From an uncultured Arcobacter sp. (GTDB lineage Bacteria; Campylobacterota; Campylobacteria; Campylobacterales; Arcobacteraceae), in NCBI GenBank assembly GCA_964445915.1, contig CAYUNC010000001.1, positions 1 through 58,107 of the forward strand: DNA of 58,107 bases. Direction: 5' to 3'. Below, piece by piece: positions 4,399 to 53,509 of this stretch (the stretch's first letter is position 1; each line of letters starts with the position of its first letter). A model generated the notes under the pieces. That model saw only the letters and a list, made by a program, of their open reading frames with translations. It did not search any database and was not told the origin of the DNA. Position numbers and translations under genes: made by a program.

Positions 4399-4455
4399 AA
4401 AGGAGGGATGCTGTTTTCTTTTCAGTATTTATACTGAAGTCTCCACGGCATATAT
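4399..4455 (+). promoter_or_regulatory. Split-SD leader hairpin L1
   Basis: AAAGGAGG at 4399..4406. Helices GCTGT/ACGGC (one G:U) and TTCAGTA/TACTGAA. CATATATATG precedes the start at 4456. Confidence 0.6.
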
Positions 4456-5562
4456 ATGATAGAAGTTATTAATAAAGATTGTATGATAGGATTAAAGGAA
4501 TTATCAGATAATTCTGTTGATAGTGTTGTTACTGATCCACCCTATGGTATGAAATTTATGAACAAAAAATGGGACTATAATGTTCCTGGTATAGAAATGT
4601 GGAAGGAATGTTTAAGAATTTTAAAACCAGGTGGTCATATTTTAGTAGCATGCGGTACAAAAACACAACATAGGATGGCTATTAATATAGAAAATGCTGG
4701 TTTTGAAATAAGAGATTTAATTGCTTGGATATATAGTCAAGGGTTTCCAAAAAACACAAATGTAAGTAAAAAAATTACTAAAAATATGAATCAAAATAAG
4801 GCAAGACAATGGGAAGGATGGGGAACTGCGTTAAAACCTGCATTAGAATTATGGACTTTAGCTAGAAAACCATTATCAGAAAAAACAATTGCTGATAATA
4901 TATTAAAATGGGGTACTGGTGGATTAAATATTGATAAGACCAGAGTTCCAGTAAATGAAAAACTTGATAGTGAAGAAAACTTGAAAACTAGCGATGTTGT
5001 TCTGTCTTCTAAAAAAGGTAGGTATCCATCTAATGTTATTCATGATGGATCCGATGACGTGTTTGGACTATTTCCTAAAACAAAAAAAGGATGGGGAAAA
5101 AACACAACTGGCATAAAGAAAGGATTAGGCTCAATATTTGGTATAGGTGGGTATAGTGAAACAGAAAGATATGATTCAGGATCAGGATCAGCAGCAAGAT
5201 TCTTTTACTGTGCTAAACCATCTAAAAGTGAAAGAAATATAGGATTAGATGATTTTCCTGAAAAGATAGTTACAGATGGTTCAACAAGAAAAAATAAAAA
5301 AACAGCAGCGAAATATCAGGCAAATTCAGCTAAAAGAAAAAATATTCATCCGACTGTTAAGCCAGTTAAACTAATGAGATATCTATGTAAATTAGTAACA
5401 CCTCCTAATGGTATAGTTGTTGATCCATTTATGGGCAGTGGCAGCACAGGTATAGCTGCGTTAGTAGAAGGTTTTAATTTCATAGGATTTGAAATAGAGA
5501 AAGAATATTTTAATTTAGCTAAAGCTAGAATAGACTATTTAGTATTTCAGTTAGGTAATTGA
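4456..5562 (+). CDS. DNA N6-adenine/N4-cytosine methyltransferase
   Basis: DPPYG near the N-terminus and FMGSGSTG near the C-terminus (beta-class motif order). Preceded by leader copy L1. Confidence 0.85.
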   Translation: MIEVINKDCMIGLKELSDNSVDSVVTDPPYGMKFMNKKWDYNVPGIEMWKECLRILKPGGHILVACGTKTQHRMAINIENAGFEIRDLIAWIYSQGFPKNTNVSKKITKNMNQNKARQWEGWGTALKPALELWTLARKPLSEKTIADNILKWGTGGLNIDKTRVPVNEKLDSEENLKTSDVVLSSKKGRYPSNVIHDGSDDVFGLFPKTKKGWGKNTTGIKKGLGSIFGIGGYSETERYDSGSGSAARFFYCAKPSKSERNIGLDDFPEKIVTDGSTRKNKKTAAKYQANSAKRKNIHPTVKPVKLMRYLCKLVTPPNGIVVDPFMGSGSTGIAALVEGFNFIGFEIEKEYFNLAKARIDYLVFQLGN

Positions 5563-5599
5563 AACATAAACAAAACAATAAAATTGAAAGGAGTTTATT

Positions 5600-5776
5600 A
5601 TGGAACTACAAAAATTTAATCCAAATTCAATAGAATTTGTAAATGCTTGGGCTGCAGCAATTAAAGAAGCATGCCAAAAACTTAATTTTGATGTTCGATG
5701 TATTGATTGGTTTAGCTACACTCCTGATTTTTTTATCAAACAAAAAAATCTTTTGTCTACTCATAACTATAATTAG
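5600..5776 (+). CDS. Small hypothetical protein (58 aa, below the ORF-track cutoff)
   Basis: AAAGGAG lies 8 nt upstream of the ATG. Fills an otherwise empty gap between genes. Confidence 0.5.
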   Translation: MELQKFNPNSIEFVNAWAAAIKEACQKLNFDVRCIDWFSYTPDFFIKQKNLLSTHNYN

Positions 5777-5814
5777 TCAATTTTAAATAAAGCTTATCAA
5801 AACAAGGAGAATTT

Positions 5815-6042
5815 ATGTCTAAGTTAGCTTTTAATGGTGTAATAAGTGGTGATGGTGAGTGTTTTTGTTTCTTAGTTGACAGAAAAACTTTCGTTGAAAT
5901 AATTAAAAAGGAACCAAGAAAGTATGACAAATCACACAAAAAGGATTATTACAAGTTATACCCAGATGATGTGTTTAAAAATATTTTAGGATCATATTCC
6001 AATAGAGAAGATTTAAAAATCAGTATTGAGGTTGAACAGTGA
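5815..6042 (+). CDS. Hypothetical protein
   Basis: AAGGAG upstream. GTGA start/stop overlap with the next ORF. Confidence 0.55.
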   Translation: MSKLAFNGVISGDGECFCFLVDRKTFVEIIKKEPRKYDKSHKKDYYKLYPDDVFKNILGSYSNREDLKISIEVEQ

Positions 6043-6236: not shown

Positions 6237-6265
6237 AAAATCAAAATTAATTATATTTCTAGTAG

Positions 6266-6640: not shown

Positions 6641-6681
6641 TGTTTACGTAATTTGTATTACCCGTTTATGGAGATTAATTG

Positions 6682-10067: not shown

Positions 10068-10110
10068 ACTGTCTTGTTAGTGTTAAACACTAACAAGACA
10101 GTTTATTATG
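10068..10110 (+). terminator. Intrinsic terminator-like hairpin
   Basis: Arms ACTGTCTTGTTAGTGTT and AACACTAACAAGACAGT (17 nt each, near-perfect), followed by TTATTAT. Confidence 0.55.
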
Positions 10111-11068: not shown

Positions 11069-11145
11069 GCCGTCGTGGTGGTAATTGGAAACACAAGGGT
11101 CTTGTAAACCCTCTAATGCAGGTTCGAGTCCTGCCGACGGCTCCA
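11069..11145 (+). tRNA. tRNA-Thr (anticodon UGU), CCA encoded
   Basis: Hand fold: acceptor GCCGTCG/CGACGGC; anticodon arm AGGGT-CTTGTAA-ACCCT; T arm GCAGG-TTCGAGT-CCTGC; 5-nt variable loop. Confidence 0.85.
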
Positions 11146-11150
11146 TATAT

Positions 11151-11245
11151 GCCCCTGTAGTTTAACGGTAAAACACCCGGCTTATACCCGGCATCAGGCT
11201 CCAGATTAGAGCGTATTCTTGGTTCGAATCCAAGCGGGGGCACCA
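11151..11245 (+). tRNA. Atypical 92-nt tRNA (+CCA), best read as anticodon UAU (Ile, AUA) with a 25-nt extra arm
   Basis: Acceptor GCCCCTG/CGGGGGC, D arm GTTT-AACGGTA-AAAC and T arm CTTGG-TTCGAAT-CCAAG. Two successive 4-bp/7-nt-loop hairpins have loops CTTATAC and CAGATTA. Confidence 0.6.
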
Positions 11246-12215: not shown

Positions 12216-12671
12216 GTGGAAAACAGAAAACTTCTAATGGTAGTTGAAAATGTTTTATACGATATAGTTGATGTCGATACAAAAAATCCATATCTTGATG
12301 TTGTTATTACCAATTCAGGTTTAAAGTTTATGGTGTCTCCTCTTGAAAATTCAGATGATAGATATAATGCAGTATCATTTTATTGGTATGAAATGATAGA
12401 AAATAATCCGGAAAAATTTGTAGAAATAGTAGGTATCGATAGATTACTGAGTTGGGCTATGAGAGAAAACATTATTGATGATGATTTTTGCACTAGTGGC
12501 GATAATATTGATGATTGGATATATAATATGGAACCCTCTTTTTTGTTCGATGTAGAAAAAAAAGAAAGAAAATGTATAATGAATAACTGGCTTAAAGAAG
12601 AGTTATCTTTTGACTTAAAATGTAATTTTTTTATTGCTTATTTAATTGAAAATGATAGAAATTGGCTTTAG
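12216..12671 (+). CDS. Hypothetical protein (GTG start 5 nt after AAGGAGG)
   Basis: The ORF-track TTG start at 12201 overlaps the SD itself. The GTG at 12216 has normal spacing. Confidence 0.55.
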   Translation: MENRKLLMVVENVLYDIVDVDTKNPYLDVVITNSGLKFMVSPLENSDDRYNAVSFYWYEMIENNPEKFVEIVGIDRLLSWAMRENIIDDDFCTSGDNIDDWIYNMEPSFLFDVEKKERKCIMNNWLKEELSFDLKCNFFIAYLIENDRNWL

Positions 12672-13006
12672 CCCGTCGCAAACCTCACCACTAAAGTGGT
12701 AGAGGTTAGGAAGCGGACGGAATTAATGTTGTCTCTAACACTTACTATAGTAATAGACACTATATACCCACTGTCTGGCTTGTAAATTTCAGTCTTATTG
12801 TGACATAGTTGGTCAAATAATTTATAAATATGAGTAACCAGGTAAAATTTCTGTTATGTTAAAATTATTAAGCATCGTATCCTGTATCTTACAGGTTATG
12901 AGTAGACGTCAGGACACCGACCAAGGGACCTTTATTCAGAGAACATCCCTTGTAGTTTGCAGATGTTTGCAAGAAACCGCATCACTTTAGTGAGAGCGGA
13001 GTGTCA
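12672..13006 (+). ncRNA. Unclassified structured RNA element, uninterrupted copy (~335 nt)
   Basis: ORF-free. Nested hairpin at 12673..12720, followed by a body alignable to 9212..9495 with compensatory changes. Confidence 0.5.
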
Positions 13007-13881: not shown

Positions 13882-13905
13882 CTATCTTATTTTATTGTCA
13901 ATTGA

Positions 13906-13936
13906 TGTCTTGCTGGTATTAAATACCAGCAAGACA
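13906..13936 (+). terminator. Hairpin after the protease gene (no U-tract)
   Basis: 14-bp stem TGTCTTGCTGGTAT/ATACCAGCAAGACA. Confidence 0.35.
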
Positions 13937-13938
13937 AT

Positions 13939-13989
13939 AAAGGAGAATTGTCGTTTTCCTAATATCAGATTTTTTACGGCATATATATA
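13939..13989 (+). promoter_or_regulatory. Split-SD leader hairpin L4 (reduced version)
   Basis: AAAGGAGA, a 6-bp basal helix TGTCGT/ACGGCA, then CATATATATAATG. Confidence 0.5.
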
Positions 13990-19467: not shown

Positions 19468-19836
19468 TTGGGTAATTATAATGACTTAATTGCCAGCAAA
19501 ATAATGGGATGGAAACTAAAAAGTAGATTTAGTATTGATGGTGAAGAAATTGATTTAGAGAAAGTTAACGAAGGTAAAGATTTATTAACATATTGTTGGT
19601 GTGATTCCAGCAATAAACCAATTTGTTATAGAGACATGTTTAACCCTGTTAGAAATAAAAATCAGTTAGATTATATAAAAGAAAAATTAAGTATAGACAA
19701 CTTAATTTTTTTTTGTATGAACGGTACAACAAAAATAATTATAAAAAGTAATGGTAAAACTTATAAAGCTTTGGATAAAGATATATCCAAAGCTTTTTAT
19801 TTTGCTCTTTTAAAAATTACAAAAAATTATAACTAA
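19468..19836 (+). CDS. Hypothetical protein
   Basis: TTG start after GGAG. Confidence 0.45.
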   Translation: MGNYNDLIASKIMGWKLKSRFSIDGEEIDLEKVNEGKDLLTYCWCDSSNKPICYRDMFNPVRNKNQLDYIKEKLSIDNLIFFCMNGTTKIIIKSNGKTYKALDKDISKAFYFALLKITKNYN

Positions 19837-20721: not shown

Positions 20722-20846
20722 ATTAAATAAATACTCCGTCATAATGTGTTAGTAAGAGCTTAAATACTAGCTTCAGTATCAACATATTTTATACGGATAA
20801 CAAAAAAATTTAGAGATGTGTTTATTATAAACCATATTTCTAGTAA

Positions 20847-22690: not shown

Positions 22691-22783
22691 GTAATAGACA
22701 ATATATTTTTTGGAAAAATTCGTTATTTTTTTAAATTGTTAAAATTTTTAAAAGAGATTTTATCAAGTGAGGAGGTAGTCTTT

Positions 22784-28924: not shown

Positions 28925-28940
28925 ATAACATTAAACAAAA

Positions 28941-31517: not shown

Positions 31518-32431
31518 AAAATATTTTTAAGAGCAGCTTTTAATATATCTGTGTATTTTATATTTTTCTTTATGTCTTCATAAGCGTTTAAGGCAAACTC
31601 TTTTCTTTCGTTGTCATGTTTTAAATAATAATCAAATTTATCTACCATATCAGTTTTATTCTTAAATTCTATAAAATGTTTACCAGAAATAAATGGACCA
31701 TATCCACCACTGGTCTTTTCACATAACAAAAATTTTTTCTTACATTGAATCATAAGTGATCTAAGTGGTGTATAAAACCATTTATCATGTGCTTTAATGT
31801 TAATATTTATTTTAGCTCTTAGAATATTTATATCTCTTTCTTTTCCCCAAATTGCTTTGGGTGTATATATATTATACTTATTATGAAGTATATTAAGAAA
31901 ATTATTTCTCCTTTTTGTTATGCTACCAAAAAAGAATCCATCAAGATCTTCGTCGATTTCTAAATTAGATTCAAATACAGAAGAGTAACCTAAAGGACAG
32001 AAAATAACATTGTTGGTTCCCTGTTTTATTTTGGTATTCTCTTCATATAATTCAAGACAAATATCATACCAACTGCTAAGATCGTAAAATCCTCTTTCTC
32101 TTCTATTCCATAATTCCTCTGCTTGTACCAATATCCTATATCCATTATTGGATGGTCTGTAGTTTTTTAAAGCGGGAAACACAAAACATAGATCAGCAGA
32201 TATATCCTCTTTTTTATTAGTTATGTTAATGTATCTGAATCCAATTTCCTTTAATGAAAATTTTAAAGCTTCTGCCCATTCATCAAACACTGCCGCTATC
32301 AACAATATACAAACTCTTGCTTCTGGTGGATGTATCTTAAATTTTCCTTGTTTTATTAATTCTCTTTTTTTGTTTTTTAGTAAACTGTCTGGTGTTTTTA
32401 AATTTCTAAATGATTTTTTCTTTGCCATCAT
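31514..32431 (-). CDS. Hypothetical protein, possibly CgeB/GT1-like glycosyltransferase C-domain
   Basis: The C-terminal segment GKHFIEFKNKTDMVDKFDYYLKHDNERKEFALNAYE resembles that family (from memory). Confidence 0.35.
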   Translation of the reverse strand: MMAKKKSFRNLKTPDSLLKNKKRELIKQGKFKIHPPEARVCILLIAAVFDEWAEALKFSLKEIGFRYINITNKKEDISADLCFVFPALKNYRPSNNGYRILVQAEELWNRRERGFYDLSSWYDICLELYEENTKIKQGTNNVIFCPLGYSSVFESNLEIDEDLDGFFFGSITKRRNNFLNILHNKYNIYTPKAIWGKERDINILRAKININIKAHDKWFYTPLRSLMIQCKKKFLLCEKTSGGYGPFISGKHFIEFKNKTDMVDKFDYYLKHDNERKEFALNAYEDIKKNIKYTDILKAALKNIF

Positions 32432-32508
32432 ATATATGTTATGAAAATTTCAGTATTTATTTCGGTGATGAAATAGTAATTTTACTTTAATACATAAAAT
32501 TTAACTTT

Positions 32509-35540: not shown

Positions 35541-38500
35541 TTATTCTATACCAACTCTACATAAATAAGTATCCTCTAAATAATAATATATAAAAATACA
35601 TTTGCCGTTACTTACAACCATACCTTCACCCAAATCATCATAATATAACGGATATGACCAGCCAACCCATTCACCGATTTCAGGAAACTGATCATCAAAA
35701 TCAGTACTTTTAATCCAAGTTTTACCATAATCAGTAGAATAAAATAATTCACCAGATTCGGACCCAGTTATACTTATACATACACCATTACCTAAATTAC
35801 ATAATTTATATATACTATTAACTCTAGTATCGACATCACCGGTTTTAGTCCAACTTTCACCATAATCAGTAGATCTGTAAATTTTTGCAGGATAATATTC
35901 ACCTCCACATATAATTACTCCATTACCAAGACTAATCATATCATCTATTACACCAGTACCAATTGGATCATATAATATAGACCAACTTTCTCCGTAATCA
36001 GTAGATTTGTATATATCAGATGGATACTTCACAGCTAAAACAATACCATTTCCACAATATATTGCTGATGAAATACTAATGTAACCAGTAAAAGGCAATA
36101 CACCACTCCAGCTTTCTCCGTAATCAGTAGATCTCATAATATTATAATCACCATCATTGGAAAATAGTATACATATACCATTTTCCAGATAAATAATTCG
36201 CTCGACACAAGTTGATGATCCATTTATTGTTCCAGAACTAACCCATGTTTCACCATAATCAGTTGATCTATAAACTTCAGGATCATAATAATAAGAAAAA
36301 GCTAAAATTTTACCGTCACCCATATTCACAAAATCATAATAATATGATGTATGAAAATAAGGACTTAAAGATTCCCATGTATCGCCATAATCAGTAGATA
36401 AATACATATTATAATCTACATCAACAACTATAATATGATCATTACCAACATAATACATATACCAAGGATTAATATAACCACCACTAATTGATTTAAAATA
36501 ATTCCAGGTTATGCCGTTATCATCTGACTTCCAAATATGTTTATTAACTGCTGATTTACATATGGCTAATAATTGGTTATCCTTACCCTTCATAACATTC
36601 CTAAAATAAAGATTTTTTTCTTTTAATCCTTCAAGATGATTATCTGTCCATGTTGAACCACCATCATTAGAAATTCTAACACTACCAAAAGTTCCATAAT
36701 CAGAACCAGCAAAAACTTTTCCGCTTCCATATGATAATTTTCCTAAATCGTCAACTTGAGATAAAGCATTCCATGTTTCACCATAATCAGTTGATTCTCT
36801 AATATAATAATAAGGAGAATTATATTGATAAGCTAAAACTTTACCACCCCCAAGATTACAGTATGATCTCGGTTTTTTATTCAAACTACACATTATTCCT
36901 TTATCAATCCAAGTAACACCATAATCAGTAGATTTAAAATAATGATATGTATTCGATGGTGATTCTATTGTTGCAATACAGTGACCATTGTCTAAATAAG
37001 CTATTTCTTCTACCTCAAAATAAGTTCCGCTGGATGGTAATGTTAAAGTCCACGTATCACCATAATCAGTAGATCTCCATATACGATCTTTAAATGATGA
37101 TTCTTCAAAAGCTGCTATACATATACCATTACCTAGATAAACTGGTGATTCATTTGTTAACTTTTCACTAACACTATCAACTATACTCCAAGAAGTACCA
37201 CCATCAGTAGATTTTATTAAAAAATTGTCTCCACTTAATCCTAAAAATATACTATCTGTTAAGTACGTAAAAGATGGTGAGCTACTATTATCGCCTAAAA
37301 GAAGTGGATCTTCAGTTAAATTCCATGTATTACCATAATCAGTAGATATATAAACACCTTCATCTTCATACCATGTACCTAAAAATATAACACCGTTATT
37401 CATATATGATATTCTGACATAATTAGTACCTTTACTGGCTTTAAATATACTCTCCCATGTATTTCCAGCATCATTTGATCTTAACACGTGACCGAGCCAG
37501 CAATCACAAAAAACAACATCATTGTCAGCATAAATTATTTGATACACATCACCATAATAATTATATCTATTAACGTTTAAGAAAAATTCTGGTGCGGAAG
37601 GTGGAACAACCAACAATGCTCTACCTTTAGTTTTATATTCAAAATCTATCTTAACAATGTTTTCATCAATTATAGTTGTTGTTTTTGGTCTTAAAAGATA
37701 GTAATCATTGTCATAACATTGTATAATTAAATCTGTTGTATTAAGATTATGTGCTATAGTCCAGGATAAAGAATTAACAGGTGTGTAATAATTTACAGCA
37801 CATAGACCATTTAAACTATGATCAATACTCCAAGTATCAGTTGGATCTACTTGTTCATGAATATAAGTACCACTTACAGCTGTACTAACCGTGTATAAGT
37901 TACCAGCATTAGTATCACATTCTATTATTGCTGTATTACTACCAGATGGTGCTATAGACAATGGTACAATAGCTGTTTGTACATATCTATCTTCTAATGA
38001 ATATAAATCAACATCTTTTGTACTATCTAATATTTTTTTTTGTATTTCTATTATTGGTGCTTCTTGATTTCTATTATGATAGAACAATAAGTTATAATCA
38101 TTACTTATATAATACACTTCTGGTTTTATTATAAAAACATAACCAGTACAAGTTGTATTAAATTCCAGTATTACTTTATAATAAATATGTGAATCACCAT
38201 CACCATCTACATAAATTAAAGTATCATTTTTAATACTTTTTGGTACTAATAAATTGTAATTGATATCATAACATTGGACTATAGGATTTTTAGTATCTAA
38301 ACCATGTACTATATACCAAGTACTCTTTGGTATATATTGCATATAAATGTAACAACCGTCTTCTGGTATTGCAAACCCACCTATAGATACAGTAGAGCAA
38401 TTTGTATATCCAGGATCTGAGCAAGAACTAGGGCATACTGAATAGCAATATAAATAATTATAGTCTATAAAGTGTGGTAAAGGTGGTCCTGTTATATTCT

Positions 38501-39326
38501 TGTCATGCCATCTTTCATATATGTTTACGCCATTTTTTGTATTAAAAACAATATTTTTAAAATTTACAAAAATGGATGAATAAGTACCAACTCTTTTTAA
38601 GTAATTAATGTGGTTTGCGGTCAAACTTCTTTTTATTATTTCAGGTAACTCATTATCAACAGTCATTTTATAAGTAGAGTCAATATAAGCTAGGTGGTGT
38701 TCATTGACTTCATATGGATCAAAAAGGGTAAATACGTTCTTCTGTTGGTTGTATACTTCATTATATACCTTATCAAAAAATACACTAAATAATTCTTTCA
38801 ACCTTGTTGTTCTATTATGTTCTGGTAAACAACTTAAAGCATATTCATCCATTCCTCTGTAACGTACTTTATAAATATTTGATGAATTTGTAGGATGTAT
38901 TTCACCAAAGTACAAAAACACCTTCTCCATATTAACAAAATTTTCTACGTTGTGACTGTAATTACCAGCTTCATAATCAGTTTGTCTGGACTCTAAATAA
39001 TTATAAAACTCACTGTTTTTCATAAAGTAAGCTTTATCACCATAATCAATAGCAAATCCAGATGTGGACGCTGTCTCACTACTGGTAACTCTTTCAAAAT
39101 AAAACCACTCACTGTTATTTCCGTAGTTATACTTAGTAAAAGGTATTACATAGAAACCAGCTGTATTACCATTCTCATCTATATCAAATATGGTCATATT
39201 AAATACAGACCACCTGTTGGTAACAATACCTGTTGTTTGACCACGTAAGTAATTATCACCTGCTTCAGCATCAATGATAGATATAAAATCTTCTATTAAG
39301 AACCTAGGTATATCTGAAAACTTCAT
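35541..39326 (-). CDS. Baseplate/fibre protein, paralogue A: shared N-terminal module plus Asp-box (BNR) beta-propeller repeats
   Basis: The first 574 aa are identical to the gene at 41752..45642. The C-terminal half has about 14 S(T/N)D(Y/G)GxTW Asp-box motifs. Confidence 0.75.
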   Translation of the reverse strand: MKFSDIPRFLIEDFISIIDAEAGDNYLRGQTTGIVTNRWSVFNMTIFDIDENGNTAGFYVIPFTKYNYGNNSEWFYFERVTSSETASTSGFAIDYGDKAYFMKNSEFYNYLESRQTDYEAGNYSHNVENFVNMEKVFLYFGEIHPTNSSNIYKVRYRGMDEYALSCLPEHNRTTRLKELFSVFFDKVYNEVYNQQKNVFTLFDPYEVNEHHLAYIDSTYKMTVDNELPEIIKRSLTANHINYLKRVGTYSSIFVNFKNIVFNTKNGVNIYERWHDKNITGPPLPHFIDYNYLYCYSVCPSSCSDPGYTNCSTVSIGGFAIPEDGCYIYMQYIPKSTWYIVHGLDTKNPIVQCYDINYNLLVPKSIKNDTLIYVDGDGDSHIYYKVILEFNTTCTGYVFIIKPEVYYISNDYNLLFYHNRNQEAPIIEIQKKILDSTKDVDLYSLEDRYVQTAIVPLSIAPSGSNTAIIECDTNAGNLYTVSTAVSGTYIHEQVDPTDTWSIDHSLNGLCAVNYYTPVNSLSWTIAHNLNTTDLIIQCYDNDYYLLRPKTTTIIDENIVKIDFEYKTKGRALLVVPPSAPEFFLNVNRYNYYGDVYQIIYADNDVVFCDCWLGHVLRSNDAGNTWESIFKASKGTNYVRISYMNNGVIFLGTWYEDEGVYISTDYGNTWNLTEDPLLLGDNSSSPSFTYLTDSIFLGLSGDNFLIKSTDGGTSWSIVDSVSEKLTNESPVYLGNGICIAAFEESSFKDRIWRSTDYGDTWTLTLPSSGTYFEVEEIAYLDNGHCIATIESPSNTYHYFKSTDYGVTWIDKGIMCSLNKKPRSYCNLGGGKVLAYQYNSPYYYIRESTDYGETWNALSQVDDLGKLSYGSGKVFAGSDYGTFGSVRISNDGGSTWTDNHLEGLKEKNLYFRNVMKGKDNQLLAICKSAVNKHIWKSDDNGITWNYFKSISGGYINPWYMYYVGNDHIIVVDVDYNMYLSTDYGDTWESLSPYFHTSYYYDFVNMGDGKILAFSYYYDPEVYRSTDYGETWVSSGTINGSSTCVERIIYLENGICILFSNDGDYNIMRSTDYGESWSGVLPFTGYISISSAIYCGNGIVLAVKYPSDIYKSTDYGESWSILYDPIGTGVIDDMISLGNGVIICGGEYYPAKIYRSTDYGESWTKTGDVDTRVNSIYKLCNLGNGVCISITGSESGELFYSTDYGKTWIKSTDFDDQFPEIGEWVGWSYPLYYDDLGEGMVVSNGKCIFIYYYLEDTYLCRVGIE
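35640..37470 (-). repeat. About 14 Asp-box (SxDxGxTW) propeller-blade coding repeats
   Basis: Motifs STDYGxTW, SNDAGNTW, SDDNGITW and similar, at 40-50-aa spacing. Boundaries approximate. Confidence 0.75.
37603..39326 (-). repeat. 1,724-bp direct repeat, copy A
   Basis: No difference from 43919..45642 seen in the stretches compared by eye. The encoded 574 aa are identical. Confidence 0.85.
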
Positions 39327-39405
39327 TTATATAGCAGCTCCAATATAAGCATCAGAGAAAAAATAGATTTTCCCTTTGTTTTAATTTTTATGACGTAATG
39401 ATTGA

Positions 39406-41748: not shown

Positions 41749-41751
41749 TTC

Positions 41752-44700
41752 TTATGCAGGACCCCCATCTGTTATAGTCCAATTATTAGGTTCTCCTGTT
41801 AATGTATTCCTAGCTGCCTCTGCAGCACCACCAGGTGTATACTTACTGTTACCAGCATGAAAATTTACGTTTGGTTTAACTGATTGTGCTGCCCACCCTA
41901 TTAGTAATGCATCATAATTTGCTGTACTTAGGGTAACATTCTTAAACATATAACTCATATTAGTTACATTTGATATGTTCCAGTTACCTATGTTCTGATC
42001 AAATGATGTCGCATCTTCAAACATACATCTCATATTGGTTACACTGGATACATCCCAATTACTAATATCCTGGTTGAATGATGATGCATTTTTAAACATA
42101 TAACTCATATTGGTTACACTGGATACATCCCAATTACTAATATCCTGGTTGAATGATGTCGCACTTTCAAACATATAACTCATATTAGTTACACTGGATA
42201 CATCCCAATTACTAATATCCTGGTTGAATGATGATGCAATTTTAAACATACTATTCATATTAGTTACACTGGATACATTCCAGCTACCTATATTCTGATT
42301 GAACATTACTGCATTTCGAAACATACAGCTCATATTTGTTACTTTGGATACATTCCAGCTACCTATATCTTTATTAAATAAATCTGTGTACTGAAACATT
42401 CCGCACATATTTGTAACATTAGATACATTCCAGATACCTATATCTTGATTAAAACTATCTGCATTATAAAACATATAGCTCATATCTGTCACGTTGGATA
42501 CATTCCAGCTACTAATATCTTGATTAAATGCCGTCGCATCTTGAAACATATATCTCATATCGGTTACACTGGATACATCCCAGCTACCTATATCTTGATT
42601 AAAATTTTTTGCACCATTAAACATGTTATGCATATCAATTACACTGGATACATCCCAGCTACCTATATCTTGATTAAAATCTTGCGCACCATTAAACATA
42701 CTATCCATATCTATCACATTGGATACATTCCAGCTACCTATATTTTTATTAAATGATCTTGCATTATTAAACATACTACTCATATTGGTTACACTGGATA
42801 CATCCCAGTTATTAATATCTTGATTAAACGATGTTGCGTAATAAAACATCAACCTCATATTGGTTACACTGGATACATCCCAGCTACCTATGTTTTGATT
42901 AAATGACGTTGCATGATTGAACATACTACTCATATTGGTTACACTGGATACATCCCAGTTATTAATATCTTGATTAAACAATCTTGCGTAACAAAACATA
43001 TTATTCATATCTGTTACTTTTGACACATCCCAGCTGCCGATATCTTGATTAAATGATTTTGCATCATAAAACATTAAACTCATGTCAGTTACATTAGACA
43101 CAATCCAGCTACCTATGTCTTGATTAAAATCATCTGCACCACAGAACATATTATGCATATCAGTTACACTGGATACATCCCAGCTGCCGATATCTTGATT
43201 AAACTTATCTGCCTCATTAAACATACCACTCATATCAGTTACATTAGACACATCCCAACTACCAATATCTTGATTAAATGATCTTGCAAGACTAAAAACA
43301 GCAACAGCAAAAATAAGTGACTTAGTATTCCAGCTACTAATATTACCATTAAATTTCGATGAATCAAATAAATAATCCATATTAGTTACATTAGATACAT
43401 CCCAGTCATTAATATTAGGTATGTCAATTAGATCATCACATTTAAAAAACATGGAATATAAACTAGTCATATTAGATGTATTAGGAGTATCTGTTGCCGT
43501 CAGTATACCTGATGTATCTAAACCTAAATTAGTACAGTGACTAAAATAATATTTTTTGTGATTATTTGTTTCTAATATAACATTACCCCATTTTAGTATA
43601 TCTATCAGTTTTCTACTTTCTCCTAAACGTTCAAAATTGATACCTTTAATACCATTACCACCACTTTCTTCTAAATTTTCTCTTAATGTTACAACATACT
43701 TACCAGGTGTGTCATATGTATGAACTAATTTATTCTCATCATATCCGTTAAATTCTGTTGTACTATTATCACCCCAGTCTACTGTCATTATATAAGTACC
43801 ATCATCAACAAGAGGAAGTCTAAATTGATCACTATTACTACTACCGTAAAATGTCTTTGTTGTATCTATGTACATAATAAATTCAATAGGTGGAACAGGT
43901 GCTTCACCAGAAGGAGAAGGAACAACCAACAATGCTCTACCTTTAGTTTTATATTCAAAATCTATCTTAACAATGTTTTCATCAATTATAGTTGTTGTTT
44001 TTGGTCTTAAAAGATAGTAATCATTGTCATAACATTGTATAATTAAATCTGTTGTATTAAGATTATGTGCTATAGTCCAGGATAAAGAATTAACAGGTGT
44101 GTAATAATTTACAGCACATAGACCATTTAAACTATGATCAATACTCCAAGTATCAGTTGGATCTACTTGTTCATGAATATAAGTACCACTTACAGCTGTA
44201 CTAACCGTGTATAAGTTACCAGCATTAGTATCACATTCTATTATTGCTGTATTACTACCAGATGGTGCTATAGACAATGGTACAATAGCTGTTTGTACAT
44301 ATCTATCTTCTAATGAATATAAATCAACATCTTTTGTACTATCTAATATTTTTTTTTGTATTTCTATTATTGGTGCTTCTTGATTTCTATTATGATAGAA
44401 CAATAAGTTATAATCATTACTTATATAATACACTTCTGGTTTTATTATAAAAACATAACCAGTACAAGTTGTATTAAATTCCAGTATTACTTTATAATAA
44501 ATATGTGAATCACCATCACCATCTACATAAATTAAAGTATCATTTTTAATACTTTTTGGTACTAATAAATTGTAATTGATATCATAACATTGGACTATAG
44601 GATTTTTAGTATCTAAACCATGTACTATATACCAAGTACTCTTTGGTATATATTGCATATAAATGTAACAACCGTCTTCTGGTATTGCAAACCCACCTAT

Positions 44701-45642
44701 AGATACAGTAGAGCAATTTGTATATCCAGGATCTGAGCAAGAACTAGGGCATACTGAATAGCAATATAAATAATTATAGTCTATAAAGTGTGGTAAAGGT
44801 GGTCCTGTTATATTCTTGTCATGCCATCTTTCATATATGTTTACGCCATTTTTTGTATTAAAAACAATATTTTTAAAATTTACAAAAATGGATGAATAAG
44901 TACCAACTCTTTTTAAGTAATTAATGTGGTTTGCGGTCAAACTTCTTTTTATTATTTCAGGTAACTCATTATCAACAGTCATTTTATAAGTAGAGTCAAT
45001 ATAAGCTAGGTGGTGTTCATTGACTTCATATGGATCAAAAAGGGTAAATACGTTCTTCTGTTGGTTGTATACTTCATTATATACCTTATCAAAAAATACA
45101 CTAAATAATTCTTTCAACCTTGTTGTTCTATTATGTTCTGGTAAACAACTTAAAGCATATTCATCCATTCCTCTGTAACGTACTTTATAAATATTTGATG
45201 AATTTGTAGGATGTATTTCACCAAAGTACAAAAACACCTTCTCCATATTAACAAAATTTTCTACGTTGTGACTGTAATTACCAGCTTCATAATCAGTTTG
45301 TCTGGACTCTAAATAATTATAAAACTCACTGTTTTTCATAAAGTAAGCTTTATCACCATAATCAATAGCAAATCCAGATGTGGACGCTGTCTCACTACTG
45401 GTAACTCTTTCAAAATAAAACCACTCACTGTTATTTCCGTAGTTATACTTAGTAAAAGGTATTACATAGAAACCAGCTGTATTACCATTCTCATCTATAT
45501 CAAATATGGTCATATTAAATACAGACCACCTGTTGGTAACAATACCTGTTGTTTGACCACGTAAGTAATTATCACCTGCTTCAGCATCAATGATAGATAT
45601 AAAATCTTCTATTAAGAACCTAGGTATATCTGAAAACTTCAT
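41752..45642 (-). CDS. Baseplate/fibre protein, paralogue B: shared N-terminal module plus ~20 DUF285/BspA-like repeats
   Basis: The ATG at 45642 overlaps the gp6-like stop (TGATG). Contains 25-aa [16 protein letters not shown] repeats and the C-terminal [10 protein letters not shown] tail. Confidence 0.8.
41960..43440 (-). repeat. About 20 tandem 75-bp (25-aa) DUF285 coding repeats
   Basis: Periodic [25 protein letters not shown] units. Boundaries approximate. Confidence 0.8.
43919..45642 (-). repeat. 1,724-bp direct repeat, copy B
   Basis: See copy A. Identity ends exactly at the ATG on one side and after codon ~574 (..ALLVVP) on the other. Confidence 0.85.
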
Positions 45643-47369
45643 CAACTCTCAACTTCAATTATACAATCATCAATAGATATATATGGAAATTGATTATAAT
45701 TTATAATAATACTTCTCAATACATTCTCATCCCAGTCTGAATCAGTAGATCTAGCCCATTGTGGATATTTTTCTGATTTATAACTATATGGATCTAACCA
45801 AGAGTTAGAGTTAAAATCCCAAAAATCAATATTTCTTACAATCATAGCAGTTATACCTTTTACATTAGAAAAATTATCAGTGTCTGAAACTTCTGATGCA
45901 TCCTTTATGTAGTTTTCTATCTCATAAAAATTTAATGTTTCACCAAAATCTCTTGAAGATACACTAAAATAATATACTAATTTATTTTTTACATCATTAA
46001 TAACTTTTGCAGATTTATAATTACTCTTGATTTTTAAACCTATATCTATTCTAAAATATATAATTTCTGGTAGAGTATAGACTTCCCATGCACATAACAT
46101 TTTTCTTAATTCTAAATATTCCGCAATTTCTTGTACCCAATCTGGATTATATGCTATAGGCATAACTCTTTCTGTATTAGGATCGGACGCTGATGGTGAA
46201 TAACTGAGAGTATTGCTTCCCCATTCAGTAGGAATTAAACTAACGTAAACTTTATTATAATTGTCAATATCACCAGAAGGAGCAATTTCTTTTTCACCCC
46301 ATACATTAGCTTTAGCTATATCACTTCTTAGTTCTAAATAACTAACATAATCATTTTTAGTAACATTACGGTACTGTGCGTGTAATATTGCTGGTGCATT
46401 ATTTTTAATTTCGGTTATGCTCTCTGGATCCGATCCACCGGTTGCTTCAGTATAATTAGTTATAGTATAATATTCGCTATTTATAGTAATTCCTTTAGTA
46501 TTATTAGTTAACAAATCGTTATCTGGATATATTATAGTATTTTTAGCTACATTACCATTAGAACCTAAACTTTCTACAGCTGTTATTTTTATTGAGTCTG
46601 TGAAAGAAGGTACATTACGTGTATCTGAAAATTCAATTATATATCTTTTATACTTATCATATCTTAAAATATATACATTGTCTTCATCACTTAATCCAGA
46701 TAATTCATCATAAAAATCTGATATTCTAGTCCACTCTTCATCGTTAACTTCTACTTTTAAACTTGGATAATCATCATCAATGTTATCATCATATCCAAAA
46801 TTAATAAATGGCAAAACAATTTTATTATCTATTAAATCACTTCCAGTATATGTATATTCTTTTAATTTTCCTTGTCTAACTGGAATATCTGTTATAGTAA
46901 ATGTACCATAACTATTAACTGTACTGTCTATTGGATTAGTAGTTACAAAAGATATATTTTCATTATTATAGTTTTTTGTTGAAAGTAACTCCTTCCATGG
47001 TTCAACTCTTAAAATATCGTCTATATCAACTTCCCCTGCTGCTGATGCTGCTGATGTTATTAATGATAAAGTTATTGTTGTTCTAGATGACCTGTAACCA
47101 GCTGGATAATAACCAATTAAATTAACCAATCTACTAACAGTTTCATATAAATCAGCAGTATCTATATAACAATTCTTAGCTAATTTATTAATATAATAAG
47201 TACTTAATTCACCTAAATATGCCATCAATTCAATAAGAATTGTTATATTAGCACCTTCATAATTATAATCAGTAAAAACATCACTTTCACTCAGCTGGTC
47301 TATTATTTTCTGTTTTATAGTATTAAAATCAATATTTAAATAATCTGGAACGAGCGTGTTATTGCTCAT
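45642..47369 (-). CDS. Baseplate wedge protein (gp6/Baseplate_J-like)
   Basis: Size and position between the gp25-like gene and the fibre genes. No sharp motif. Confidence 0.55.
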
Positions 47370-47828: not shown

Positions 47829-47879
47829 TACCAAAGATATAATTAGTACTGCCAGAGTGGGGTAGTTAACAAATATCTC

Positions 47880-48869
47880 TTATAATCTAGTAAAACATCT
47901 TTTACCTTTAATAGGTCTATAGATATTTTTAAAATCAATACTGTAATCAAAATCATCTTTTTCAAATTCTTTTTGTTCTTTAATTCCCAAGTTATGAACA
48001 ATTAACAATTCTTCATTAACATTAGAACCTTGAATTAATTTTATTCCAGAGGGCGCCCATATTCCAGATCCACCCCAAAAGACAGCTTTACTTATAGGAT
48101 GAATACCAACTGCATTACAAGCAATGATCCATACTTGATTAGTTACACTTCTTGAAGATGCCAACAAATCCCATAAAAAACCATAATATTGATCAGTAGC
48201 TACATTCATACCAGGATAGTCTCTTTCAGCAGTTCCTCGCCATGAAGCAATTTGAATCACTGCATCAACTTTATCAATTAAACTATATTCTTGATACAAT
48301 TGACTAAAACACATATCATAACAACTAGTTGTAGCAAATTTTCCCCATTCTGTTTCAATAATCAATCTGTCATCCTGTCCTGTTTCTGTATAAATCTTTT
48401 CAATACCAGGTAACATTATTTTGTCATATATCATGTTTTCTTTAAAATAATCTACTTTTTTGTTCACTATATAAGTACTGTTCATATATTTCTTATTAGG
48501 ACCTTTTCTAATATTATTAAACAATATAAATTGGAAATTATTGTCTAACATTGATTCTAAATTATTTTTCACCCAATCTTTATGTTCTTCAATAACAGCC
48601 TTATTCATATAAGACCAACACGATTTTTGATCTTCCCAAAAGTAGCCAGCTAAACAAAATTCTGGAAATACAGCCATATTACAGCCTTTATCTTTAAATA
48701 TTTTACAAGCTTTTTCTATTTTAGTTTTATTCTCTTCTATTCCTGGTACTGCAGCGTGAATATTAGCTAATCCCACGGATAAATTTTTTTCATTTTTAGA
48801 ATAAAATCTTTCTAATAAATTAAATCCGTCTGATTTACTTTCTGTTATATATTTTCTAAAATTCATCAA
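47880..48869 (-). CDS. Carbon-nitrogen hydrolase (nitrilase superfamily)
   Basis: Glu context VFPEFCLAGY and Cys context TTSCYDMCF. Confidence 0.65.
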   Translation of the reverse strand: MMNFRKYITESKSDGFNLLERFYSKNEKNLSVGLANIHAAVPGIEENKTKIEKACKIFKDKGCNMAVFPEFCLAGYFWEDQKSCWSYMNKAVIEEHKDWVKNNLESMLDNNFQFILFNNIRKGPNKKYMNSTYIVNKKVDYFKENMIYDKIMLPGIEKIYTETGQDDRLIIETEWGKFATTSCYDMCFSQLYQEYSLIDKVDAVIQIASWRGTAERDYPGMNVATDQYYGFLWDLLASSRSVTNQVWIIACNAVGIHPISKAVFWGGSGIWAPSGIKLIQGSNVNEELLIVHNLGIKEQKEFEKDDFDYSIDFKNIYRPIKGKRCFTRL

Positions 48870-50914: not shown

Positions 50915-52137
50915 AAGATACCTGATAAATTTTTTAATTTTGGTTTAGATAATTTTATACTATCTATATCTTCATATCCAGTTTTACAACAGACCATCTT
51001 TTGCAAAAAAGTTGGTATAGTTTCATTTGAAAAATGACTGGTTATACCTCTAACCAAATAAAGACCAGACATCATTTTATTAAAAATTTCATCAACAGAT
51101 GACGGCCATTCCACTTCAATAATCATTCCTGGATATCGCTTTTCATTACCAATAACAACCGGCATGAAAGTATTTTGATTAATATAATTTTTAATAAAGT
51201 CATTATAATGAATATTAGCTAGTATAGAAGTATTGGCATCACCCTCTAAAGAATAAGAAGAAGTTATATTGTCTATATCATTTTTAAATAAAGCTCTTCT
51301 ACCTAAAGATGTAAATTTTTGAACACTATCACTATACTTATTTTTGCTAAATACTAATTTTTTAGTATAAGGATCAAAACCCATTCTTGTTGTTCCTGCA
51401 ATATCTCTTAAAGTAGTTCTATCAACACCTGAATGATCCCAACTAATAATTTTATTTGCATAAAAGAGATTTTCACATTCAAATAGATAGTTTTCATTTT
51501 CAGCTTTCTTTTTTCTCAAAAGCGACTCTATTGTGACAAAATTAAATTTTCCTTGCGACGTATACAAGACATATCCGGGTGTTCTAGTTACTTTACTTGA
51601 ACATCTTCTCATAAGCCAAGTTAAAGCTTCACCAGGAGTCCAAAAAGGCATTATAAAATTTTCTAATGTTTCACAGGTTTCTTCAAAATTATCAAATTTA
51701 TCTATTCCAATCATATTTTTAGCTATATCATCAACAATTTCACTGTATTTTTTATTAACCCATGACTTAGAGAATCTTTTCAAGGAAACATTTTCTAAAT
51801 GTTTTTCAGCAAAAATTAAATCTGTAACAAAAATATTTCCAGAATTAACAGTAGATGCAGTATAATTTTTATTTATTTTAACAATATAAAAAGTTCTTTC
51901 AATTATTTCATCATTACCATAAGATATAACTATTTTTTCATCACCTTCTAGTGGACCTAATTCTTTAAGACCGTATTTATCAATTATTGTTAGCCTACCA
52001 ATAGAACCATATAAAAATATATCTTCTAACCACATACATGTCTTTATATCATTAAGATCTATATTGACATCACCTCCTGTTGAAAACTCTATGTACACAC
52101 CAAAATTAATTAACTTAAAAGAATCATTATTTATCAT
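50911..52137 (-). CDS. Baseplate hub protein (gp27-like)
   Basis: About 400 aa, immediately upstream of the spike gene and overlapping it. Confidence 0.5.
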   Translation of the reverse strand: MINNDSFKLINFGVYIEFSTGGDVNIDLNDIKTCMWLEDIFLYGSIGRLTIIDKYGLKELGPLEGDEKIVISYGNDEIIERTFYIVKINKNYTASTVNSGNIFVTDLIFAEKHLENVSLKRFSKSWVNKKYSEIVDDIAKNMIGIDKFDNFEETCETLENFIMPFWTPGEALTWLMRRCSSKVTRTPGYVLYTSQGKFNFVTIESLLRKKKAENENYLFECENLFYANKIISWDHSGVDRTTLRDIAGTTRMGFDPYTKKLVFSKNKYSDSVQKFTSLGRRALFKNDIDNITSSYSLEGDANTSILANIHYNDFIKNYINQNTFMPVVIGNEKRYPGMIIEVEWPSSVDEIFNKMMSGLYLVRGITSHFSNETIPTFLQKMVCCKTGYEDIDSIKLSKPKLKNLSGIL

Positions 52138-52277
52138 TTCTTTAAAAAAAACCTTTGTTTATTCAATTAAAATTTATTTTTAGACCAGATCATATACAAC
52201 CAATTTTGTAGTAACAATAAATTCTTGCTTTTATTAACTATAAATTTTTAGTACAGTCTTATTGAACTAAAAAACTA

Positions 52278-52661
52278 TTATAAATCTTTTAATGAATGCA
52301 TCTCTTTTACAATTTGATAAATATACTTGGGTTTAAGTATTTTTAAAAAATCCCCTGGTGATATTTCTTCAAACGGATTTAAAATATTGTTCATCATTGG
52401 TATTAACCACCACAATTCTGCATTTTTGTAATAATAATATGAAGTGTTGTCATAAAATTCATCATTACTTATATTGTGAGTAATATAAAATAATACAGAA
52501 CTACTAACATCTTTATTTATTTCATATGATTTAAATATATTCAATAACTTAGTACCATCTACAGAATCCTCTAATACATCAAACATATTTAATTGAGAAG
52601 AGTTAGATATTCTATTTCCTGTTGCTTCATAAAAAGATTCATCTGTCTTTTTACAAGTCAT
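52278..52661 (-). CDS. Hypothetical virion-module protein
   Basis: GGAG upstream. Confidence 0.5.
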   Translation of the reverse strand: MTCKKTDESFYEATGNRISNSSQLNMFDVLEDSVDGTKLLNIFKSYEINKDVSSSVLFYITHNISNDEFYDNTSYYYYKNAELWWLIPMMNNILNPFEEISPGDFLKILKPKYIYQIVKEMHSLKDL

Positions 52662-52673
52662 TTTTATCTCCTT

Positions 52674-53450
52674 CTAAAATTTACCATGTACAATTGATGT
52701 TTTTGTATCTGGTTTTATCATTACTCCACCACTTACTTCACGTACATCAACTTTACTGCGACCAGAAAATGTATTTTTAAAAGTTGGTTCTACTGAAGTA
52801 AATTGTAATGTTAATTCGCATTTACTTGGATAACCACTTGTAAATGGTGCATAATAAGTCGGTTGAACAGATGTTAAAGCTGCATTTTCTATGTATATAT
52901 AGTTGGTATTCGGATGTGATCTTACTTTAAAAATGCATGGTGGAATTAAATTAGTTATATCTATTTGATCAGAAGCAAAATCAGGACTACTAAGTTCTAA
53001 AAGCTTCATTATTGGTTCTGTTATTTCATGCTCATTGTCAACTTTATATGAAATATCAAAATTAAAGATATAATTTAATCTTTCTGAATCAACATAAACC
53101 AAAGGAGTGTCTACTCTACCCCAAACAACTTTACCACTTCCTGTTGCTGTAGAATAAAGATCATAAACATTTTGTTTAGCTTTTAAAACTACCCCGGCAA
53201 ATCTACTAATAATAGATTCATATGGTTCCCATGTATGAGACATAGATACAGCAAATGTAACTGGAGCTAAAAATACAAATTCTGATATTAGTGAACTTTT
53301 TTCTACTGGTTTTTTGTTCCTAGAATTAGTCTTTTGACTTGTTAACTTATATGCTTCTATTACAATCCATAAAGCATCAGTAAATTCATTATATGGACTA
53401 AATGATGGTATTTTATAAGATTTTTTAGTTTCTGATGTTATTTCACTCAT
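52674..53450 (-). CDS. Hypothetical virion-module protein
   Basis: Preceded by leader L12, with ATG at 53450. Confidence 0.55.
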   Translation of the reverse strand: MSEITSETKKSYKIPSFSPYNEFTDALWIVIEAYKLTSQKTNSRNKKPVEKSSLISEFVFLAPVTFAVSMSHTWEPYESIISRFAGVVLKAKQNVYDLYSTATGSGKVVWGRVDTPLVYVDSERLNYIFNFDISYKVDNEHEITEPIMKLLELSSPDFASDQIDITNLIPPCIFKVRSHPNTNYIYIENAALTSVQPTYYAPFTSGYPSKCELTLQFTSVEPTFKNTFSGRSKVDVREVSGGVMIKPDTKTSIVHGKF

Positions 53451-53509
53451 CAACGTATATACCGTAAATAATCCAGCAATTAGACCGGAAAAACGGCATT
53501 CCTCCTTCT
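53451..53509 (-). promoter_or_regulatory. Split-SD leader hairpin L12
   Basis: Reverse complement reads GAAGGAGGAATGCCGT...ACGGTATATACGTTGATG. Confidence 0.55.

Follow-up and report, generated by a model that had tools for sequence, protein, structure and literature searches.

A dispersed leader family with a conserved hairpin between a distant Shine-Dalgarno sequence and the start codon in an uncultured T4-like phage

In bacteriophage T4, genes 38 and 25 possess split translation initiation regions (TIRs), in which the Shine-Dalgarno (SD) sequence is too distant from the AUG in the linear sequence and a hairpin reduces the SD-AUG spacing from 22 to 5 nt and from 27 to 11 nt, respectively; mutations that destabilise the hairpin lower translation (Nivinskas 1999; Malys & Nivinskas 2009; reviewed in PMC3014915). 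The DNA analysed here, a stretch of 58,107 nt with 29.6% GC from contig CAYUNC010000001.1 (referred to as the window), originates from an uncultured T4-like myovirus. Twelve of its genes are preceded by one leader of ~66 nt, in which a strong SD is located ~50 nt before the AUG and a conserved hairpin lies between the two. As in the T4 sites, the SD is too distant linearly, the SD and the AUG are predicted to be unpaired, the hairpin would shorten the gap (from 36–57 to ~8–13 nt), and one of the carriers is a gp25 homologue. The match with the T4 split TIRs is one of mechanism class, and the leader has no homology to the T4 gene 25 site. The T4 sites are single, gene-specific and confined to close T-even phages, whereas the leader serves at least 23 unrelated genes and is also present in unrelated phages and a bacterium, and its hairpin is larger, two-tiered and carries a conserved internal-loop strand. 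A sequence-only reading of this DNA had described hairpin-bridged SDs as isolated cases of T4 genes 38 and 25, which agrees with PMC3014915. In full-text literature searches, no description of a repeated bridged-SD leader was found, and these two genes were the sole documented precedents.

Other known systems share the dispersal of the leader or its strong SD. PeSL cassettes are dispersed intergenic composite repeats of T4-like phages that end in an SD and a start codon and are tied to indels and gene insertion; each combines a sigma70 consensus promoter and a terminator stem-loop, which is placed between the -35 and -10 elements or overlaps them, and their SD-AUG spacing is normal (PMC2839356, PMC4122927). 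In the leader, by contrast, the stem-loop is positioned between SD and AUG with no U-tract after it, a promoter consensus occurs at a single copy (L9, described below), and core virion genes are included among the carriers. The SAS of Cluster K mycobacteriophages is also a repeated, oriented, SD-containing sequence before many unrelated genes. This 13-bp element (GGGATAGGAGCCC) is located 3–7 bp from the start codon, is rare outside its phage group and has a suspected role in translation initiation; an inverted repeat, the ESAS, accompanies about half of the sites upstream of the SD, for which its authors found RNA pairing unsupported (PMC3203893). The leader differs in its motif, in the 36–57 nt that separate its SD from the AUG, in the position of its inverted repeat between SD and AUG, and in its strong covariation. 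A very strong distant SD is also characteristic of STAB-SD, the 5´ mRNA stabiliser of cryIIIA in Bacillus thuringiensis, in which GAAAGGAGG lies far upstream and coexists with a ribosome-binding site (RBS) adjacent to the start, whereas the leader genes have no second RBS near the start.

All 12 copies were found at the gene starts that the sequence-only reading had listed. R1, a covariance model (CM) built from the 12 copies and searched without filters against both strands of the window, returned exactly these 12 with 48.8–83.6 bits (E 3e-8 to 2e-15); its reverse-strand matches are weak echoes of the palindromes and score far lower. A crude architecture detector reported 13 sites in the window, compared with a mean of 0.85 (maximum 3) in 100 block-shuffled windows. 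On the forward strand, L1 (4399–4464; 79.7 bits) comprises AAAGGAGG at 4399–4406, a two-tier hairpin with a fold of −15.7 kcal/mol and the AUG at 4456 of an N6/N4 DNA methylase gene (Pfam PF01555). L2 (6266–6331; 79.5 bits) forms a fully paired 20-bp hairpin (−24.0 kcal/mol, z −7.0) in front of the adjacent AUGs 6323/6326 of a 104-aa ORFan, and L3 (11259–11324; 67.9 bits) precedes an NAD-dependent epimerase gene, whose real AUG at 11319 is overlapped by AUG-UAA-UG. The shortened L4 (13939–13995; 55.9 bits) has the SD AAAGGAGA and only the 5-bp basal helix GUCGU/ACGGC before AUG 13990 of the CCA-adding enzyme (Pfam/PHROG). L5 (20847–20912; 83.6 bits; AUG-AUG 20904/20907) serves a gene of the GDP-mannose 4,6-dehydratase family. 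In L6 (21954–22003; 48.8 bits; AUG 21995/21998), the upper hairpin is deleted and a 14-nt interior remains, with basal helix and flanks kept; a homologue search with its gene matched solely the phage itself. L7 (26068–26133; 66.7 bits; AUG-AUG 26125/26128) is another fully paired variant (−23.7 kcal/mol) and precedes a 233-aa ORFan, and L8 (29910–29975; 80.7 bits) precedes a 55-aa open reading frame (ORF) with AUG 29970 overlapped by AUG-UGA-UG. On the reverse strand, L9 (24627–24684; AUG 24632; 63.5 bits) has a shortened upper hairpin, L10 (33632–33697; AUG 33635; 69.0 bits) precedes a gp55-like late sigma factor gene (PHROG 234, E 3e-31), L11 (47762–47827; AUG 47766; 70.4 bits) precedes the gp25 baseplate wedge gene (Pfam PF04965), and L12 (53446–53508; AUG 53450; 57.9 bits) precedes the gene of a 258-aa virion-module protein. 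The identities given to these genes from their translations alone were upheld, by Pfam for the methylase, epimerase, CCA enzyme, dehydratase and gp25, and by the PHROG match for the sigma factor.

The only SD-like sequence of each leader gene, AAAGGAGG or a close variant, is located 36–54 nt before the AUG and is thus distant, as the sequence-only reading had stated. The 22 nt upstream of each of the 12 AUGs are free of the tetramers GGAG, GAGG, AGGA, AAGG, GGGG, GGTG and AGGT, and the linear gap from GGAGG to AUG is 36–57 nt, mostly 49–54. Most other genes in the window have AAGGAG or AGGAGG 4–11 nt upstream of the start; the leader SD is an 8-nt perfect SD that is stronger than most of these genic SDs. 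The layout is (A/G)AAGGAGG, 3 nt, GYYGU, a U-rich segment, the upper hairpin, a pyrimidine-rich segment, ACRRC, a (C/U)AUAU-rich segment and AUG. The geometry at the helix base, GGAGG-N3-[GYYGU...ACRRC]-N9-11-AUG, is fixed: the SD is exactly 3 nt from the helix in all 33 parsable copies, and the helix is 9–11 nt from the AUG in 31 of 34. In contrast, the hairpin interior is anywhere between 14 and 33 nt long, with upper-hairpin deletions in L4, L6, L9 and L047:9792 (a copy on another contig, see below). Fixed distances around a variable interior are the pattern expected from selection on closure of the helix base. The earlier claim that the hairpin restores a normal spacing is supported by minimum free energy (MFE) folds, which in most copies put the end of the SD 1–4 nt before the outermost pair and the conserved AUG 6–10 nt after it. 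SD and AUG are predicted to be unpaired (P > 0.65) in ~20 of 25 copies, and an SD-sequestering RNA thermometer or riboswitch platform was rejected on this ground.

The spacer folds into a hairpin in 11 of the 12 copies, in which it is the MFE structure (−8.4 to −24 kcal/mol); the exception is L4, whose MFE fold instead pairs the SD. The hairpin is composed of the basal helix GYYGU/ACRRC, a 5x5 pyrimidine-rich internal loop or its paired equivalent, and an 8-bp upper helix capped by a U/A-rich tetraloop. Fully paired 20-bp variants are L2, L3, L7 and the distant member L188. Every basal-helix sequence quoted in the sequence-only reading was correct, and the covariation that it described is supported for both helices, on MAFFT alignments not fitted to structure as well as on the CM alignment. 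In a structure-independent MAFFT alignment of the 12 sequences, double changes were observed in 13 of 20 pairs, none of 500 shuffles matched the covariation score or the percentage paired, and the basal helix pairs in essentially all 12 sequences with CG/UA/UG alternation. When distant members are included (25 or 26 sequences in the CM and MAFFT alignments), 90–92% of the cells pair and 12 of 14 pairs contain double changes, compared with 26–47% paired cells in slid controls; the 26-sequence MAFFT alignment has 90.4% of cells paired and 64 double-change cells versus 17 ± 4 in shuffles, with slid controls at 29–42%. Near-identical strains agree with this pattern, in that both substitutions that fall in helices keep or improve pairing: a U-to-C change in L7 of strain L007 turns a U.G pair into C-G, and a variant of L12 changes U-A to U.G. 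G:U pairs outnumber A.C juxtapositions by 39 to 14, which, together with the constant orientation of the leader relative to its gene and the weak reverse-strand scores, indicates that the structure belongs to the sense-strand RNA.

Sequence is conserved in part of the hairpin in addition to pairing. The 5´ strand of the internal loop (UUUYY, or UUCCUCC in GC-richer members) is retained although the opposite strand shifts from unpaired to complementary, and the GC-richer members could also form an alternative GGAGG:CCUCC pairing, though one far weaker than the main fold. The near-palindrome that had been described in five loops is exact (GGTATNNATACC) in three copies (L2, L5 and L8), with near matches only in L1 and L10, and it forms the top of the upper helix plus the tetraloop rather than a loop. 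As a genome-wide protein-binding palindrome, GGTATNNNATACC was rejected (4 matches versus 1.9 expected). The leader matches no family of Rfam 15: a scan of the window at gathering scores returned two tRNAs only, and permissive scans of two leaders returned miRNA or snoRNA noise.

The leader is probably a structure-bridged (split) TIR of the T4 gene 38/25 type that occurs as a dispersed, portable family. The near-perfect SD would be single-stranded and followed after exactly 3 nt by the two-tier hairpin and then by 9–11 unstructured A/U-rich nt that lead to the AUG. A 30S subunit bound at the SD of a closed hairpin would meet the AUG ~8–13 single-stranded nt away rather than 36–57, and initiation would then be possible at a gene without an SD of its own. 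The module would have been copied to many unrelated genes, in which it would replace compact RBSs, sometimes arriving with an inserted gene. Conservation, covariation, the fixed helix-base geometry, the lack of a local SD, the substitution of canonical RBSs and the wide distribution are apparent at the level of sequence; from them we infer that the hairpin is required for initiation and enhances it, and that translation is coupled to folding and may respond to temperature, helicases or upstream ribosomes.

The family extends beyond the window. A pattern scan of IMG/VR identified two T4-like contigs from one metagenome with 11 further copies, each of which ends at an ORF start. L047 (10 kb) encodes gp18 and gp15, and L034 (5.9 kb) encodes the portal gp20, the protease gp21 and the scaffold gp22; leaders precede gp15, gp21 and gp22, among other genes. 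Apart from the leader, all that these contigs share with the window is two short intergenic hairpins and a faint tail-tube similarity; the leader copies, dispersed repeats of 66–110 bp, are ~65–70% identical within and between contigs. A stricter pattern with two gaps gave 14 loci in IMG/VR, all with the full architecture, on phage contigs of 28–54% GC that include one of 281 kb. Their consensus is AAAGGAGG-NN-NGYYGU-UUCCU-CCCnnnnn-UAAA-nnnnnGGG-UnUCC-ACRRCN-N8-9-AUG, and the genes behind the distant leaders are unrelated (a membrane protein, a nucleoside deoxyribosyltransferase, ORFans and two very small ORFs). In a scan of bacterial genome contigs, the only full-architecture locus among the 117 matches listed is L122, where the leader precedes a TetR gene beside cheB and cheR in an Anaerolineaceae metagenome-assembled genome (MAG). 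The wider search that the sequence-only reading had proposed thus revealed cousins in other uncultured phages and one bacterial MAG. GenBank phages gave no match to 14 kb of the window (megablast) or to two leaders (blastn); in IMG/VR, the exact 20-mer ATTTCTAGTAGAAAGGAGGG had no match, and the pattern AGGAGGNNNGYYGTTTCCTCC gave only four further chance matches, all without the architecture. Model R2 found no second copy in any distant leader-bearing locus, and expansion of the leader is so far observed only in the window contig and the low-GC T4-like L034 and L047. Two related large phages have apparently orthologous leaders at L188:3367–3432 and L190:303–368, with shared flanks (one 35-aa tblastx match upstream) and compensatory changes in the upper helix. 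The ORFs that follow, of 19 and 35 aa, are non-homologous, and the leader is therefore better conserved than what lies behind it. A tblastx comparison among all leader-bearing loci detected no protein common to the window and the distant loci except a methylase fragment.

Relatives of the phage have ordinary RBSs at the corresponding genes. No leader was found in any of the relatives obtained through gp6 and gp25 (L001, L004–L006 and L198–L201); in the syntenic relatives, gp25 or gp6 is 36–60% identical. The closest relative found, L198, is syntenic from the sheath gene to gp6, has a 60% identical gp25 and contains no leader within 18 kb. The RBSs at orthologous genes in the syntenic relatives are AGAGGA-N8-AUG, AGGAG-N7-AUG and AAGGAG-N7-AUG. 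In L198, gp25 has AGAGGA 8 nt from the AUG, and AGGAG is located 7 nt before the AUG of the L12-gene orthologue, which follows an intergenic gap of 9 nt; the corresponding gap in the window is 125 nt and contains L12. At the L11 site, an additional CN-hydrolase gene (47880–48869), absent from L198, precedes the leader, and both the L11 and the L12 sites are insertions relative to L198. Because the relatives have compact canonical SDs at orthologous genes, the leader is a derived insertion that replaced an ordinary RBS. Judged from these comparisons, it is gained at intergenic sites, sometimes 3´ of an inserted gene, and then serves as the RBS of the gene that follows. Inheritance of the gp25 leader from the split TIR of T4 gene 25 was rejected: closer relatives lack the leader and have a canonical gp25 SD (L198, L001, L004 and L005). 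The proposal of a dispersed, possibly mobile module is supported in that the leader is dispersed and looks portable: it precedes unrelated genes on both strands, is absent from the gp25 and L12-gene sites of the closest relatives, and occurs in unrelated phages and one MAG.

Sequences that flank the leader were also compared. The suggestion that late transcripts start at a promoter within the loop did not hold: TATAAATA occurs 19 times in the window versus 21.6 expected, and in 2 of 23 family members (L5 and L047:5207). Shared sequence upstream of several copies was confirmed as TAYATTTCTRRTA, directly 5´ of the SD. All three zero-mismatch matches in the window are linked to leaders, and upstream alignment places the extension at 4385–4397 (+), 6252–6264 (+), 20833–20845 (+) and 53511–53523 (−), with a weaker version at 47829–47841 (−). 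It is present in about half of the copies and has a possible promoter -10-like role. Scans for sigma70 promoters and terminators near the leaders gave nothing above shuffles, except one promoter before L9. This sigma70-like sequence (24727–24699, −; TTTACA-17-TATAAT) matches at 11 of 12 positions, has TG before the second hexamer and lies in a divergent intergenic region. With ~14 nt between the end of its -10 hexamer and the SD, it would start transcripts a few nt ahead of the SD. Upstream of L4, a 35-nt hairpin at 13905–13939 (+; CTTGCTGGTATTAAATACCAGCAAG, centred on GGTATTAAATACC) is 100% identical to L047:1056–1090 (blastn), which is also located directly before a leader; with TTGTCA 17 nt upstream, it resembles a terminator or a PeSL-like promoter/terminator module. 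A second conserved intergenic hairpin, AACCUCACCAC-UAAA-GUGGUAGAGGUU, was observed at the 3´ end of unrelated genes at 12655–12710 in the window and at L034:5592–5654. The two versions are 86% identical with a compensatory C:G to U:A change, and the element may be a terminator or a small RNA.

The start region of several copies contains more than one AUG. In the copies with adjacent AUGs, the second is the conserved one, and in sister strain L007 the first AUG of L6 is replaced by AAG. In L3 (11314–11321), L8 (29965–29972) and L9 (24637–24630, −), the first AUG is an out-of-frame AUG-stop, so that a start-stop mini-ORF (AUG-UAA-UG or AUG-UGA-UG) overlaps the real start; the same arrangement occurs at L047:4890. 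Upstream ORFs can also reach into the leader. The ORF at 29345–29941 passes through the SD and 5´ arm of L8 and stops in the hairpin loop, and the upstream ORFs L026:76–780, an HNH endonuclease gene, and L190:188–334 end inside the hairpin as well, giving C-termini such as ...(I)ERRxxV.... Ribosomes that finish such an upstream gene would unwind the leader, and initiation downstream could be coupled or inhibited. The next two forward R1 matches, both before ORF starts, look like decayed leader copies. The first (39318–39377, −; 23.5 bits, E 0.006; AUG 39326 of a 1261-aa gene) has a weak AAAGGGAA and no basal helix, and the GGAG of its former upper 3´ arm is now 12 nt from the AUG. The second (32423–32488, −; 17.2 bits; AUG 32431 of a glycosyltransferase-like gene) keeps the 3´ half and the CAUAUAUAUGAUG flank and has lost the SD and the basal helix. 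Upstream of L3, tRNA-Thr(UGU) and a tRNA called Ile(UAU), which is unusually long (95 nt in ARAGORN, 92 nt in Rfam), occupy 11069–11245; L3 begins 15 nt past the latter, and the CCA-adding enzyme, which has an HD domain, is located 2.7 kb downstream behind L4.

Several observations weigh against a split TIR. The bridged hairpin, with 40–44 nt and two tiers, is larger than the T4 cases, and closure of the 5-bp core helix alone would leave a single-stranded spacing of 12–14 nt, at the long end of the workable range. L4 and two other copies are predicted to pair the SD in the MFE fold. The decayed copy at 32423–32488 has no SD, yet precedes an intact 305-aa ORF, which suggests that the A/U-rich start region may support some SD-independent initiation. 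Bridging does not explain the conserved 5´ strand of the internal loop, which hints at a bound factor or at the alternative SD:CCUCC pairing, and simple bridging accounts neither for the SD-less decayed copy nor for the TAYATTTCTRRTA extension. The leaders of L188 and L190 precede only the very short ORFs mentioned above. The loop strand, the SD-less copy and TAYATTTCTRRTA together leave room for a bound factor, SD:CCUCC pairing, a 5´-stabiliser role or an attached promoter.

One alternative, which we consider unlikely, treats the leader as a 5´ stabiliser or standby site: the SD and hairpin would recruit the 30S subunit and/or block 5´-end-dependent RNases, and initiation at the AUG would be SD-independent through the A/U-rich CAUAUAUGAUGAAA, or would follow sliding or scanning once the hairpin opens. 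The unusual strength of the SD, the L9 promoter that would put the 5´ end just before it, the conserved TAYATTTCTRRTA that abuts it, a 3´ flank that is both conserved and predicted unpaired, and the intact gene behind the SD-less decayed copy are all consistent with such a role. However, L2, L3, L8 and L10 lie inside operons, 15–30 nt past a co-directional gene or tRNA or overlapping an upstream ORF, and the leaders are therefore not generally located at transcript 5´ ends. STAB-SD coexists with a separate genuine RBS, none of which is present here, and the invariant N3 and N9–11 distances would not be required.

A similarly low probability is assigned to an operator function, which is compatible with bridging. 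The hairpin, especially its 5´ strand GYYGU-UUYYU/CCUCC and the tetraloop, would be the site of a trans-acting repressor or activator, of a RegB-type SD-specific RNase or of RNase III, and all carriers would be under one post-transcriptional control. Consistent with this, the sequence of the internal-loop 5´ strand, and not just its pairing, is conserved across phages of 28–54% GC, and the carrier genes span metabolic, regulatory and virion classes. The fully paired (L2, L3, L7 and L188) and internal-loop variants resemble RNase III substrates of the T7 type, with which the shape of the leader (~20 bp of double-stranded RNA with or without an internal loop) is compatible; an SD placed 5´ of the hairpin speaks against productive processing. 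T4 RegB is known to cut GGAG in the SDs of early genes (PMC3014915). Cleavage in or next to the hairpin, however, would part the sole SD from the AUG. No candidate factor emerged from the tblastx comparison, in which a methylase fragment was all that the window shared with distant loci, and because a cellular genome also carries the leader, in front of a TetR gene, a phage-encoded factor cannot be general.

It is improbable that the leader is primarily a DNA-level cassette, that is, a PeSL-type recombination or regulatory module that spread by gene shuffling or through a palindrome-binding protein, with an incidental RNA fold. The dispersed intergenic copies on both strands, their insertion relative to relatives, once with an extra gene, and the upstream ORFs that run into L8, the L026 copy (from the HNH gene) and the L190 copy are expected of such a module, and PeSLs mediate shuffling of this type in T4-type phages (PMC2839356, PMC4122927). 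Both helices nevertheless covary instead of keeping their sequence, and the excess of G:U over A.C is strand-specific and so speaks for RNA. The orientation is always that of the gene, and the distances to SD and AUG are fixed. The sigma70 consensus is upstream of one copy only, with promoter-like matches at or below shuffles. PeSLs have their stem-loop within or ahead of the promoter and a normal SD-AUG spacing. A coding hairpin, in which translation would start at an AUG or UUG right after the SD (e.g. AGGAGGGAUG) and yield a 16-codon N-terminal extension or a leader peptide, was rejected as very improbable, since open in-frame upstream starts in L2 (6275), L5 (20856) and L10 (33665) are offset by in-frame stops that interrupt the hairpin in 10 of 25 copies, an SD-to-start spacing of only 1–3 nt, substitutions that follow paired-position covariation and are not codon-like, and the choice of the downstream AUG by the gene callers of public contigs.

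The phage itself is distant from described isolates. Its gp6-like protein is at most 25% identical to those of phage isolates, and near-identical strains (L002, L003 and L007) are present in two ENA metagenome assemblies. The record names of the bacterial carrier (L122, Anaerolineaceae MAG 4572_78) and of ENA assembly DOMB18-1_SAMN06251742 are presumably those of Guaymas Basin hydrothermal sediment assemblies, and a host or environmental link between the sister strain and the sole bacterial carrier through this basin is possible. The window encodes the baseplate and tail proteins gp25, gp6-like and gp5-like baseplate proteins and a gp19-like tube protein, together with the gp55-like late sigma factor, an SbcC-like nuclease, DNA methylases, the CCA-adding enzyme and two tRNAs. 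Two giant paralogous genes on the reverse strand (35541–39326, 1261 aa; 41752–45645, 1297 aa) have an identical segment of at least 300 nt (37603–37902 and 43919–44218), and the longer contains ~20 tandem 75-nt (25-aa) repeats at 41867–43366; they are probably fibre or adhesin genes undergoing recombination. Three perfect long palindromes with 13–16-bp stems and T-runs on both strands (10068–10102, 19765–19796 and 28937–28971) are located between gene blocks and look like bidirectional intrinsic terminators. The ORF at 22736–23968 has a Pfam match to the MTTB (trimethylamine methyltransferase) family, an unusual phage cargo, and lies near genes for OMP decarboxylase, a glycosyltransferase, DNMK and dUTPase.

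Bridged SDs, until now curiosities of two T4 genes, appear here as a single RNA family, represented by at least 23 copies on three low-GC T4-like contigs. Its natural mutational series, which comprises compensatory pairs, fully paired and internal-loop forms, upper-hairpin deletions and decayed copies, makes the mechanism directly testable. For annotation, gene callers that expect an SD near the start will mis-score leader genes and disagree over adjacent start codons; public calls take the second AUG in the AUG-AUG copies, and in longest-ORF lists several copies are extended to an in-frame codon further upstream. A structured RBS that can replace a compact one and travel with inserted genes is a translation-level counterpart of the PeSL cassettes thought to drive the modular shuffling of T4-like phages. 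More tentatively, the leader may be a horizontally spreading ribosome-entry cassette that makes translation conditional on folding; a host or phage factor would recognise its UUCCUCC strand, a look-alike of the anti-SD, or this strand would toggle with the SD. In that case, the ~20% of the phage's genes that have the leader, among them those for the late sigma factor, baseplate, head assembly and nucleotide sugars, would constitute a post-transcriptional regulon under a switch that could respond to temperature, helicase activity or upstream translation, a device common to unrelated phages and bacteria. If folding does gate initiation, the leader would be a compact natural part for fold-dependent control of translation.

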